Assembly (NCBI GenBank): GCA_027460535.1 | Contig: JAPZAR010000027.1 | Span: 270,001-302,000, forward strand | Direction: 5' to 3' | DNA: 32,000 nt | DNA from: Candidatus Methanoperedens sp. | Lineage (GTDB): Archaea > Halobacteriota > Methanosarcinia > Methanosarcinales > Methanoperedenaceae | Part shown: positions 22 through 30,926 of the stretch, piece after piece | Layout: each line of letters starts with the position of its first letter | Numbering within the stretch: the first letter of the stretch is position 1 | Notes under the pieces: generated by a model | What the model was told of the DNA's origin: nothing | Database searches by the model: none | What the model saw: the letters and a program-made list of their open reading frames with translations, nothing else | Program-made: the position numbers and the translations under genes

Positions 22-254
22 TATGAAAAACTTTAGGAAAGTTTTATCAAATGAAGGGGATGTTTCACATCCCCTATACGTCATAAAGGGGCGTAACCCT
101 TTATGAAAAACTTTAGGAAAGTTTTATCAAAAACCTTTGAAAAAGGTTTATCAAACGACGGGTATGGCACGCCATACCCGGACACGCCCTCCCGAGGCGT
201 GACTCGGGAAGGGGATGTTTCACATCCCCTATACGTCATAAAGGGGCCTTTATG
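22..254. repeat. Array of concatenated short perfect hairpin modules (mosaic palindromic element)
   Basis: Hairpins at 27-45 and 107-125 (aaaacttt/agg/aaagtttt), 56-74 and 211-229 (ggggatg/tttca/catcccc), 82-105, 131-149 (aaaccttt/gaa/aaaggttt), 159-180 (cgggtatggc/ac/gccatacccg), interleaved 183-201 and 190-209, and 237-254. Exact direct repeats 22-51=102-131 and 53-92=208-247. Confidence 0.85.
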
Positions 255-26499: not shown

Positions 26500-26716
26500 G
26501 GAAGGCGCCGTCCATTAAAATAAAAAACCGCAGATAAAGGCGCCCAGAGTCGCGCCTCTGGAGGGCTCAAAGGGGGAGCCGTGAATGAAAATGACAAACC
26601 GCAGATGAAGGCGCCCAGAGTCACGCCTCTGGAGGGCGTGTACACGTATGCCCGCAGGCATACGTGGGCGCGGAGTCGAGAACCCGCAGGGTTTCGGCAT
26701 GATGAACGCAGATTTA
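26500..26716. repeat. Mosaic hairpin-module repeats (one partial copy and one complete 119-bp composite element at 26597-26715)
   Basis: aaccgcagat[a/g]aaggcgcccagagtc[g/a]cgcctctggagggc occurs at 26526-26565 and 26597-26636. Hairpins lie at 26544-26561, 26615-26632, 26643-26666 (10-bp stem) and 26680-26694. Both termini are identical to those of 28509-28668. Confidence 0.85.
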
Positions 26717-26794
26717 TAACACTGTCTCCAGAAATTATTAGCTTTCACCAATTTTTTGAAGTAAATGTTATTATTTCATTAGAAGCTCATGCAG

Positions 26795-26890
26795 CAACCC
26801 GCCCGAAGGGCGGCGCCGTATATGAAATAAAGAACCGCAAGATGAACGCCCCGAGTCGCGCCTCGGTGGTGGGGGCGAAAGCCCTCATCC
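26795..26890. repeat. Further hairpin modules of the same family
   Basis: Hairpins at 26799-26813 (ccgccc/gaa/gggcgg), 26851-26866 (ccgag/tcgcgc/ctcgg) and 26873-26884 (gggc/gaaa/gccc). The unit ggcgccgtatatgaaataaagaaccgcaagatgaacgcc parallels 26504-26543. Confidence 0.7.
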
Positions 26891-27582: not shown

Positions 27583-28127
27583 TTTGCACCTCTTTAGCTG
27601 AATGGTTTGAAGCACCGGGTGAGGGATGATATTATCGTGTTAGATATGGTGAATTCACATTTATATTATTATGGTTCTTTTGCAACTCTGCAACGTCACG
27701 TGCAGGGCGACTTTTAGTTTGCGTCAGATTTGAAAGCGGAAGAGAGTACGACAACGATGTCCCCGCTGTTTTTCGCCTACCACCACTTCATGCTCTCCCT
27801 GAACCTCGTCACCCTCTCATCCTTATCCGGTTTCCTGAAAACATAGAGATGCTCATGTCCGATGAGATAGAAGTCATACTTCTTCCCGAACCACTTCTCC
27901 CTCGTGCTCTTCATCTTCCACTGGAGCTTGATGATATCCTCGCGCAATATGAATCCCGCCTCAAGGAAGCTCATGAGCACCCTCGGCGTAATGGGCACGA
28001 AATGCTTGTTGCGCCGCGTATCGCCAATCAGGATGGCGCAGTGCTTGTTGGGCTTCAGGACGCGCATGCACTCACCGGCGACGAGGCGCATCTCCCGATC
28101 GAACTCGGCGATGCTGTGCACGCTCGA

Positions 28128-28204
28128 AAGCCGAAACTTCGGCTTGCGCAGTGTTGGGGTATGCTCTGCATACCCCTCGTTTGATAAACATTTCCTAAAG
28201 GTTT
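28128..28204. repeat. Three-hairpin module lying in frame inside methyltransferase copy A
   Basis: Hairpins at 28128-28145 (aagccgaa/ac/ttcggctt), 28156-28176 (ggggtatgc/tct/gcatacccc) and 28186-28204 (aaacattt/cct/aaaggttt, one mismatch). The module is colinear with 131-180 on the opposite strand. Confidence 0.8.
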
Positions 28205-28247
28205 TTGAGAGGTCGCCCTCGCGGTCATGGGAATAGGGGATGATGCT

Positions 28248-28348
28248 GGAGTACAGAGAAAGTAGCAAAGAATCAACCACAGAGGACACAGAGTTCACAG
28301 AGAGATGTTGTTTTATCTCTGTGTCCTCCGTGCTCTCTGTGGTTTTTT
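28248..28348. repeat. ~100-bp block with long nested inverted repeat, replacing the motif IV region of copy A
   Basis: The arm aaccacagaggacacagag (28275-28293) faces ctctgtgtcctc[cgtgctct]ctgtggtt (28317-28344). An inner stem is cacagagat/atctctgtg. There is no counterpart in copy B, which has 85 nt encoding ...DLIATHPPYA here. Confidence 0.8.
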
Positions 28349-28508
28349 ATCTCATGCGTCTGATACTCTGAATCGAGCGGCATGTAAACAAAATCCAGCA
28401 TGTTGCGCGCCACCATGACAGCATCAGGATTGATATCCACGCCCACGGGGCGCCAGGAGTTTGCATTCCATCAAAGCTTCCTGAAAAAATGCGGTATTTT
28501 GGAAAAAA

Positions 28509-28668
28509 AACCGCAGATGAAGGCGCCCAGAGTCACGAGCCTCCCGAGTCGCGCCTCGGGAGGGCGCGTCCACGTATGCCTTCAGGGCATACGTGTTGTT
28601 TGGGAGTCGAGAACCGTTAGGTTTCGGTCTGAGAACCCGCAGGGTTTCGGCATGATGAACGCAGATTT
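28509..28668. repeat. 160-bp composite hairpin element inside methyltransferase copy A
   Basis: The left 29 nt (28509-28537) are identical to 26597-26625, and the right 38 nt (28631-28668) are identical to 26678-26715. Internal hairpins lie at 28543-28560, 28571-28595, 28612-28625 and 28633-28647. Confidence 0.85.
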
Positions 28669-29010
28669 GCTGTTACATAGGAGGTAATCCCCCCATGCCG
28701 GCCATCTGGTCCAGCACAAGCTCGCCGGGCTGGGTATAGCGCAGGATGAGGTTGCGCGGGATGTAGGGGGACCAGTTGCCCCTGTAGTTCCCAACGTGCG
28801 TCGCCCAGTCGCAGCGGTCGGAGAAGCTCCAGACCTTGGTGGTTTCTGGGGTGAAGGTGGAGGGGGCGAAAAATCTACCCTTATCGGCATCTTCAAGCTT
28901 AGTGAATGGTAATCGTTATGCAGCAGGAAAAAGAATATACACAATACAGGATAAATAAAAATAATATAAGATCTTATAATAACAAATCGCAAAACCATAA
29001 GGAGTTCATA

Positions 29011-29635: not shown

Positions 29636-30065
29636 TTAAAAGTCATTGTATGGATTGAGCAGACACTGGAGTCCGGGGGGTGTTAGGGGAAGGTGAGAAT
29701 AACATCTGAAACGCCTACCACCACTTCATGCTCTCCCTGAACCTCGTCACCCTCTCCCCCGCATCCGGCTTCCTGAACACATAGAGGTGCTCATGCCCTA
29801 TCAGATAGAAGTCATATTTTTTCCCGAACCACTTCTCCCTTGTGCTCTTCATCTTCCACTGCAGCTTGATTATATCCTCGCGCAGGATGAGCCCTGCCTC
29901 AAGAAAGCTCATCAGCACCCGCGGCGTGATGGGCACGAAATGCTTGTTGCGCCGCGTATCGCCTATCAGGATGGCGCAGTGCTTATTGGGCTTGAGCACG
30001 CGCATGCATTCAAGCGCGACTTTCCGCATCTCCTCGGCAAACTCAGCGATGTTGTGCACGCTTGA

Positions 30066-30128
30066 AAGCCGAAACTTCGGCTTGCGCAGTGTTGGGGTAT
30101 GCTTTGCATACCCCTCGTTTGATAAAAA
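30066..30128. repeat. Hairpin module inside methyltransferase copy B (two of the three hairpins of copy A)
   Basis: Hairpins at 30066-30083 (aagccgaa/ac/ttcggctt) and 30094-30114 (ggggtatgc/ttt/gcatacccc). The third hairpin is absent and an A5 run (30124-30128) remains. Confidence 0.8.
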
Positions 30129-30397
30129 GGTCGCCCTCGCGATCATGGGAATAGGGGATGATGCTGGCATAGGGAGGGTGGGTGGCGATGAGGTCAACGG
30201 ACTCGCTCTCTATCAGGTCAAGCGAGCGCGCGTCTCCCGTGTATGTCCTGATCTCAGGTACTTTATACTCGGCATCCAGCGGCTTGTAAACAAAATCCAG
30301 CCTGTTGCGCGCCACCATGACAGCATCCGGGTTGATATCCACACCCACGGGGCGCCAGGAGCTTGCATTCCACCAGAGTTGTGCCTGAGCCCATCAT

Positions 30398-30531
30398 CCC
30401 GAGTCGCGCCTCGGGAGGGCGCAGACACGTCAACCGTTGCGCCAGTTGACGTCGCACACACGTATGGCTCCGCCATACGTGGATATCGCTGCGCGATATG
30501 CCCGCAGGGCATACGTGGATTCCCGCTTACG
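30398..30531. repeat. 134-bp hairpin-module insertion splitting the SAM-binding motif of copy B
   Basis: It lies between codon D (30532-30534) and MMGSGTT (30397 downward). Hairpins are at 30398-30415, 30428-30451, 30459-30481, 30483-30499 and 30497-30513. Confidence 0.85.
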
Positions 30532-30926
30532 GTCAAGCACATGCTCGCCGGGCTGTGTATAGCGCAAAATGAGGTTGCGCGGGATGTATGGCGACCAGTT
30601 GCCCCTGTAATTCCCCACGTGCGTGGCCCAGTCGCCGCGGTCGGGGAAGGACCAGACTGTGGTGGTTTCGGGGGTGAAGGTGGAGGGGGCAAAATTTGAG
30701 ATCGTCCACTTCGGCTGGAGTTTTATTTTTGTTTCCCCGATTTCCACTTCCGTGTGGGATTGGAGGAAATGTTTGTAGTCAGTCCTTGTGATCTCGAACA
30801 AGGATCGATATTGATATGATTACTAATATATAAATTAATATGATCTAATTATGTGAATATAATTAAGTTGGAAGTAAGGTGTAAGTAAGTTATAATTAAA
30901 AAATCCGATTTAAGATCATTAATGCA

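Follow-up and report, generated by a model that had tools for sequence, protein, structure and literature searches.

The window examined here, a 32,000-nucleotide stretch of a Candidatus Methanoperedens genome (C27:270001-302000 of a 2.9-Mb assembly in 37 contigs, denoted G000), contains two hairpin-rich elements, at 26597-26715 (119 nt) and 28509-28668 (160 nt), that share identical ends but differ in their interiors. The locus raises the question of whether these are copies of one mobile unit with defined ends and an interior assembled from interchangeable hairpin cassettes, as proposed in the initial annotation. The evidence presented below favors, with moderate confidence, a different arrangement, in which each element is a selfish non-coding hairpin string nested within a separate mobile array of three 10-bp units, and is neither a gene nor a switch. 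The parts of the two elements and of their incomplete relatives are as follows, with the array units numbered 1 to 3 and the palindromic modules of the string designated by letters.

26504..26525, plus strand: A-rich array leader GGCGCCGTCCATTAAAATAAAA, found again at 26575-26596 (repeat family D3).
26526..26566, plus strand: truncated copy consisting of unit 1 AACCGCAGAT and module A alone, in the first half of a 71-nt duplication.
26597..26606, plus strand: unit 1 of the 10-bp array, complete copy 1.
26607..26703, plus strand: hairpin string of copy 1 within unit 2, comprising remnant GAAGGCG, A (~26610-26638), B (26643-26666), C (~26675-26697) and remnant CATGAT.
26704..26715, plus strand: unit 3 (GAACGCAGAT) and TT, copy 1.
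26833..26886, plus strand: decayed third copy, made up of a unit 1 interrupted by one extra nucleotide, GAACGC, a variant of module A (CCCCGAGTCGCGCCTCGG) and one further small hairpin.
28477..28508, plus strand: left leader (TTCCTGAAAAAATGCGGTATTTTGGAAAAAA) of the array cassette in methyltransferase pseudogene copy 1, from alignment with locus L035 (an archaeal metagenome-assembled genome, JAHIFK010000161.1) and with methyltransferase copy 2.
28509..28518, plus strand: unit 1, complete copy 2.
28519..28656, plus strand: hairpin string of copy 2, comprising A' (a half module, tandem duplicate), A, B (28571-28595), C' (28609-28627), C (28631-28650) and remnant CATGAT.
28657..28668, plus strand: unit 3 (GAACGCAGAT) and TT, copy 2.

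The 29-nt left end is present without mismatches at 26597 and 28509 and with two mismatches at 26526, and was not recovered from shuffled sequences (n = 100); the 38-nt right end is present without mismatches at 26678 and 28631 and is likewise not expected in shuffles. The interiors differ in the loop of a 10-nt stem, which is CACGTATGCC/CGCA/GGCATACGTG in copy 1 and CACGTATGCC/TTCAG/GGCATACGTG in copy 2, and in the number of GAGAACC..GGTTTC hairpins (one and two, respectively). The ends, lengths and differing interiors are thus all as initially described. The partial copies also exist: the one at 26526-26566 lies in a 71-nt tandem duplication of the leader, unit 1 and first hairpin (26504-26566 versus 26575-26637, 87% identical), and the one at ~26833-26886 is decayed and has no clear right unit. 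The leader at 28477-28508 recurs at C11:194908 and C14:73447.

The methyltransferase region of the window is itself duplicated (27774-28871 versus 29712-30694, 87–90% identical), and the two elements might therefore be by-products of that local duplication. This explanation is almost certainly wrong. Copy 1 lies outside the duplication, the 300-nt flanks of the two copies show no similarity to each other, and the string in the duplicated methyltransferase copy is a different one, lacking an array and inserted at another codon. More than 20 copies are present in the genome and hundreds across the family; the left end alone, allowing up to five mismatches, was found 21 times on 13 contigs. The proposal of a dispersed mobile or recombining family is therefore upheld, and neither a restriction to two copies nor homology of their flanks is observed.

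The nature of the ends is a different matter. The 'fixed termini' correspond to units 1 and 3 of an array of three 10-bp direct repeats, AACCGCAGAT-RAACGCAGAT-RAACGCAGAT, in which GATGAACGCAGAT is a tandem unit rather than the end of an element. The permuted order of the motifs CGCAGAT and GATGAA at the two ends, which had been noted earlier, is real and is explained by the ends being successive units of this array. The 'defined ends' do not, however, delimit the element, since the same array is found empty 28 times in this genome and also in bacterial phyla. The genome contains 85 sites matching AACCGC[AG]GAT, compared with ~9 expected. At 28 of them one or two further units follow directly (empty arrays), 26 are followed by a GC-rich hairpin string (filled arrays), and of the rest six precede another repeat and 25 run into unrelated sequence.

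Filled arrays have a constant order. Unit 1 is followed by what is left of the 5' part of unit 2 (GAAGGCG or GAACGC) and then by the string, behind which come the 3' remainder (CATGAT or ACGCCGAT), unit 3 and TT. The polarity is the same in 26 of 26 cases. The consensus upstream of 48 arrays ends in ttttgaAAAtAAaA, with an A-rich leader, tGAAAATAAAA, directly before unit 1, and the tail TTG(T)TG is also conserved, giving a total of ~50 bp for the array with its leader. The first base of the unit 2 remnant and that of unit 3 vary alike in filled and empty arrays, indicating that the string occupies the local unit 2 rather than substituting for the array as a whole. The possibility that the string brings its own unit 3 is unsupported, as the proportion of G to A in unit 3 does not differ between filled and empty arrays.

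Homologous sites provide the second line of evidence. At C7:98585 the adjoining gene pair is syntenic in all 48 genus genomes, and the spacer is found in three states: a stop codon, 10 nt and ATG in G037, G031 and G035, an empty array in G019 and G024, and a filled array in G000. At the methyltransferase site, the homologous gene of L035 shares the cassette insertion and has all three units intact, where methyltransferase copy 1 of the window has a 138-nt string in unit 2. At C10:176230 the composite of array and string is absent from G028 and G011, in which the genes are 6 nt apart or overlap. Four pairs of paralogous sites with homologous flanks differ only in being empty or filled. The search for empty sites in relatives that had been suggested for this locus thus has a clear outcome, with orthologous sites carrying the array without hairpins. 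The accompanying check for target-site duplications was negative: no consistent duplication is evident in the alignments of empty and filled sites, and the repeated GATGAA is the junction between neighboring tandem units.

Two local duplications were observed in the course of these comparisons. At C10:176100-176600 (locus L154, 600-1120) ~50 nt of the target, covering the gene junction and the upstream gene's 3' end, are present on both sides of the composite, the downstream copy being degenerate (comparison with G028 and G011). A duplication of ATGAAATAC(T/G)CTGAACTGTC, similar to that at C10, surrounds the array-less string at C8:5100-5330.

In total, ~33 string loci, mostly intergenic, were identified in the 2.9-Mb genome. 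Approximately 26 of the 33 (about four in five) lie in arrays, which together occupy ~1.5 kb (~0.05%) of the genome, corresponding to a ~1500-fold preference. Strings without termini also exist. The example in the window is:

30398..30531, plus strand: array-less string of modules A, D, B, G and B in the coding sequence of methyltransferase pseudogene copy 2.

The cassette in methyltransferase copy 1, at 28477-28690, follows QMAGMGG, 7–10 codons beyond the site of the copy 2 insert as judged from the translations. As the two sites differ by this distance within motif I, the two inserts are independent events, and the array-less string at 30398-30531, together with the others of its kind, indicates that strings can insert without arrays.

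The string is composed of a finite set of palindromic modules, defined by eye: A, CGCCCAGAG..CTCTGGAGGGCG or a CCGAG variant; B, the CACGTATGCC..GGCATACGTG family; C, GAGAACCC-GCA-GGGTTTC; D, CACGTCAACCG..; E, GTCCTCAAGGGGCGCAACCCTTGA; F, GTCTATGCATTGCGGCGGGCATGACGCC; and G, GATATCGC..GCGATAT. When 23 complete strings (interiors of 74–353 nt) were aligned to the longest string plus F, the coverage of the colinear chain equalled the total match coverage in 22 of the 23, and the remaining string is colinear at the module level. The strings therefore follow one master order of ~350 nt, A'-A-(B-C)-D-D'-B-E-B-G-B-(C'-C or F), with tandem duplications of 15–22 nt (A'A, C'C and DD', and a triple A' in one relative). 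The idea of an interior drawn from a finite module set is thus supported, while free interchange of cassettes is not: the colinearity of the strings with one master order suggests that interior variation arises by deletion between similar hairpins and by slippage rather than by free assembly. Recent copying is indicated by a 208-nt composite at C7:146596 and C11:7007, whose 96.6% identity extends precisely from unit 1 through unit 3, the flanks being unrelated.

Single-stranded DNA folds of the two window elements are far more stable than those of shuffled sequences (z = −3.8 and −3.5) and leave the first and last ~12 nt, i.e. the terminal units, unpaired. Such stability, together with compensatory changes in the stems, the leader tGAAAATAAAA directly before unit 1 with TT(G) after the array, and the position of many copies 5–30 nt past a stop codon, could indicate a small structured RNA gene or a 3'-untranslated-region or terminator element, with the TATA-like AT-rich leader serving as a promoter. 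Several features make this quite improbable. Among 396 pairs in stems of at least 8 bp, only three are not Watson–Crick pairs and none is of the G:T (G:U) type, so that both strands fold equally. Hairpin B, with 38 copies, has six different fully complementary 10-bp stems, with more variants in relatives and metagenomes; the corresponding G:T and A:C mismatch counts in 57 metagenomic elements are dominated by fixed mismatches of the module consensus. No orientation bias with respect to neighboring genes is seen (seven in the same and six in the opposite direction relative to the upstream gene, 11 and five relative to the downstream gene), the empty array has the same leader without hairpins, copies lie within pseudogenes and module content varies fivefold in length. 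A search of the region and related contig ends against Rfam 15 at permissive thresholds left the elements unmatched and returned only chance-level miRNA-like hits on a CACAGAG-type foldback described below. Near-perfect palindromes with compensatory variants that fold equally on both strands argue for action at the DNA level. From these sequence features the repeat probably works as DNA and is probably selfish, and the strings are most likely junk-like passengers rather than RNA genes.

The hairpin string is confined to Methanoperedenaceae, the family of the methane-oxidizing Methanoperedens archaea. A search with the DNA of 28509-28668 gave matches in 49 of 53 genomes of the family, a second genus included, and the hairpin interior alone was found in 3/3 family genomes and in 0/147 genomes of other Methanosarcinia families. 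The same architecture is present in five other species. A 25-nt segment of module C was matched exactly on 100 metagenome contigs, with 74 of 102 occurrences followed by a unit, and was absent from the viral contig collection searched.

The array has a far wider distribution. The pattern CGCAGATRAACGCAGAT was found at at least 120 loci, with Cyanobacteria, Chloroflexota, Planctomycetota, Verrucomicrobiota, Acidobacteriota, Proteobacteria and archaea among the matches listed. Most of these loci are foldbacks, in which three units are followed by a short loop and three inverted units, and the open reading frames between the inverted arrays looked incidental. As a separate observation, the 30-bp array is kept at the nucleotide level across distant phyla (loci L026-L105), with a first unit that is often AACCGCAGAT or AGCCGCAGAT. 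Arrays insert into both intergenic spacers and genes, and the window contains a gene-less foldback of a sister array type:

28259..28348, no strand assigned: foldback of three CACAGAG units, a loop and three inverted units, inserted in methyltransferase copy 1 and replacing part of it.

The genome encodes two PDDEXK_3 (PF13366) genes. One of them (C24:134246-134587) has a filled array at 134036-134189 on one side and an inverted, empty one at 134681-134710 on the other, forming an intact nuclease cassette (C24:134036-134710) with one end filled; it was the only gene-carrying cassette with this exact unit returned by a strict search of this genome. Inverted arrays bracket 11 of 20 PDDEXK_3 genes taken from relatives. 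The units are of the CGCAGAT type at seven genes of 342 nt and of the CACAGAG type, that of the window foldback, at four genes of 348 nt from four relatives. This pairing suggests a distinct unit sequence for each nuclease subfamily. Judged from these arrangements, the array appears to be the terminal inverted repeat of cassettes carrying a small PDDEXK_3 ('GxxExxY') nuclease gene; the array also occurs as solo copies and gene-less foldbacks in many phyla of bacteria and archaea. No description of the array or of array-bounded PDDEXK_3 cassettes was found in the literature searched.

The location of the strings in the end repeat of a nuclease cassette could mean that they arise on the spot, with the cassette nuclease cutting the array repeatedly and fold-back (snap-back) repair producing palindromes at each locus independently. 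Palindromes with 3–6-nt loops are the expected product of fold-back priming, and the half-module tandem duplications A'A and C'C are signs of local slippage. Such an origin is nevertheless highly improbable, because the recurrence of the modules in a constant order, at dozens of loci and across 49 of 53 species, implies that the strings were copied and not reinvented, and genomes without a PDDEXK_3 gene still carry many strings.

Movement in trans by a single-strand HUH transposase of the Y1 type, with the array unit as the target sequence and the strings as non-autonomous elements, would account for several observations: insertion is site-specific and polar with no clear target duplication, hairpins lie at both string ends, four Y1_Tnp proteins are encoded in the genome, and some strings lie outside arrays, as real transposition would give. 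Such movement is how IS200/IS605 transposases mobilize palindrome-associated transposable elements and how RAYT transposases mobilize REP/BIME repeats. For the strings this explanation is considered unlikely. None of the four Y1_Tnp loci of this genome (3.3-kb loci, ~1.5 kb around the gene) contains modules or 10-bp units, the string ends do not have the GTAG or CGTC tag that marks REP superfamilies (PMC3733652), and the left and right ends vary between subfamilies, with right ends of the C type or the F type.

Several other repeats occupy or accompany the arrays. A second non-coding repeat of ~140 nt, which starts with (G/A)AGCGTACTATTAACACTTTCGGTCAGC and has its own GC hairpins, lies directly after unit 1 AACCGCAGAT at six places. 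Its sites are C28:41352, C16:16537, C11:270599, C20:73507 (contig ends), C27:50320 and C4:36842 in this genome, and L189 1500-1640. It ends four contigs and is present in 34 of 49 genus genomes. Its position directly after unit 1 indicates that the array hosts more than one kind of cargo. The sequence after unit 1 at the four contig ends had appeared insertion-sequence-like, but a large insertion sequence or group II intron was rejected when a full copy in G036 proved to be the ~140-nt non-coding repeat. An AT-rich three-hairpin repeat (28128-28204 in the window) is also found in unit 2 of an array at C30:23016-23102 (minus strand), and in G013 (L014) it is nested within a GC-rich string. The arrays at C16:16299-16674, C18:120-530 and C31:107170-107530 lie in a tandemly iterated unit of ~290 nt that begins with CCCGGCGCCGAT and contains GTTCCCGAAGCAGCAATATTC.

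The nesting of a selfish hairpin string in a separate mobile array could have come about as follows. The orthologous sites show arrays being gained, and strings would have appeared secondarily in unit 2 in one polarity, so that units 1 and 3 came to resemble 'fixed termini'. Strings would be copied from filled to empty arrays, either through ectopic gene conversion or template switching or with the help of some site-specific enzyme. Conversion could be guided by unit-like sequences at both ends of the string in addition to units 1 and 3. The similarities of GAAGGCGCC to GAACGCAGA and of GACGCCGAT to AACGCAGAT, taken with units 1 and 3, amount to 15–20 nt of homology on each side. Slippage and recombination among similar hairpins would later reshape the interior. 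Gene conversion or template switching is the most economical route, although the array-less insertions hint at a site-specific enzyme.

A number of observations weigh against this account. Approximately seven strings have neither or only one of the units, so that unit homology cannot be the sole route of insertion; the string at 30398-30531 directly adjoins coding sequence on both sides, with VLD before it and MMGSGTT after it in the S-adenosylmethionine-binding motif I. For an enzymatic route, the absence of modules and units from the four Y1_Tnp loci means that no enzyme is linked to the strings, and the number of PDDEXK_3 genes does not track that of strings across the 53 genomes (rho = 0.22): strings are present in G031 (99% complete), which lacks a nuclease gene, and absent from G008, which has five. 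The direction from empty to filled is limited by the way in which the ancestral state was assigned, the empty array being taken as ancestral from its status as the general bacterial state and not from a rooted tree.

A related but rather doubtful possibility is that the three-unit array is an attachment-like landing pad, in which an enzyme opens unit 2 and several unrelated palindromic families integrate in fixed polarity; the enzyme may be the PDDEXK_3 nuclease or a partner. The module families seen in arrays are the GC-rich strings, the AT-rich three-hairpin repeat and the AGCGTACTATTAAC repeat. If true, this would represent a new integron-like capture of non-coding hairpin DNA, and the pan-prokaryotic arrays would be part of an undescribed mobile superfamily.

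Within the nested arrangement favored here, the strings can be compared with several known repeat systems. Repetitive extragenic palindromic (REP) sequences and bacterial interspersed mosaic elements (BIMEs), associated with RAYT (REP-associated tyrosine) transposases, are high-copy GC-rich palindromes arranged in mosaics (PMC2817692, PMC3116915, PMC3733652). The strings resemble them in being mostly extragenic, lineage-restricted, non-coding imperfect palindromes with variable mosaics and compensatory stems, and in forming many-copy GC-rich palindromes (hairpin B alone has 38 copies, and string loci number ~33). They differ in their archaeal host, in the single polarity of the strings compared with alternating BIME units, in the absence (by inspection) of a GTAG/CGTC tag, in that none of the four Y1_Tnp genes is bracketed by modules, and in their location in the 10-bp array of another mobile element. 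BOX elements of Streptococcus pneumoniae have the structure boxA-boxB(n)-boxC (PMC3049150). The composites of array and string look like them in having constant ends and an internal module number that varies through slippage, longer arrays varying more (PMC3049150). The termini of BOX elements are, however, their own and resemble insertion-sequence inverted repeats, whereas those described here are direct 10-bp units of a separate array, which is empty in 28 cases and missing from some strings; furthermore, at least seven palindromic modules in fixed order take the place of a repeated boxB. With these likenesses, the strings appear to represent in archaea what REP/BIME and BOX repeats are in bacteria.

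Other systems are less similar. Unlike miniature inverted-repeat transposable elements, the window elements have ends that are direct repeats, unpaired in the folds, and no consistent target duplication. Palindrome-associated transposable elements (PATEs), which derive from IS200/IS605, have no terminal inverted repeats, have hairpins near both ends and insert in one orientation at a short site without target duplication. The strings share the polar, duplication-free, site-specific insertion and the subterminal hairpins of PATEs, and likewise lack terminal inverted repeats. They differ in having no cognate TnpA with the same ends among the TnpA loci of this genome, in a target that is a 10-bp tandem unit rather than a tetranucleotide or pentanucleotide, and in an interior that is a long string of unrelated palindromes. 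The fixed module order argues against cassette-wise capture as in an integron attC array. The PDDEXK_3 cassettes match in the termini, those in the window being exactly these units; the hairpin cargo is specific to Methanoperedenaceae and arrays elsewhere are empty. Tandem repeats of Borgs are head-to-tail, perfect and formed locally, and are reported to be virtually absent from the host (PMC9879509). They share with the strings the host lineage and the property of being fast-evolving repeats, and differ from them in that the strings are dispersed chromosomal palindromes. No publication on such repeats in Methanoperedens was found in the literature searched.

At the start of the window, AT-rich hairpin repeats cluster at positions 1-250 together with exact direct repeats, two of 30 nt and two of 40 nt, and an inverted module lies within this cluster:

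187..214, minus strand: module A, inverted, in the AT-rich hairpin repeat cluster.

The present analysis contributes a three-state orthologous series, a colinear module grammar, a count of empty and filled arrays, the pairing of nuclease subfamily with unit type and the lack of co-occurrence between nuclease genes and strings. In practical terms, the repeats break assemblies, split genes and fill spacers, and should be recognized and masked when Methanoperedens genomes are mined, as is done for methane-cycle biology and for giant extrachromosomal elements. More generally, archaea too have mosaic palindromic repeats like BIME and BOX, but lacking the transposase that accounts for those of bacteria. 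The array is probably the more important lead, as it is kept from cyanobacteria to archaea and bounds small PD-(D/E)xK nuclease genes, and the composites of array and hairpins in Methanoperedenaceae offer a natural empty/filled read-out of how such arrays are recognized and cut.

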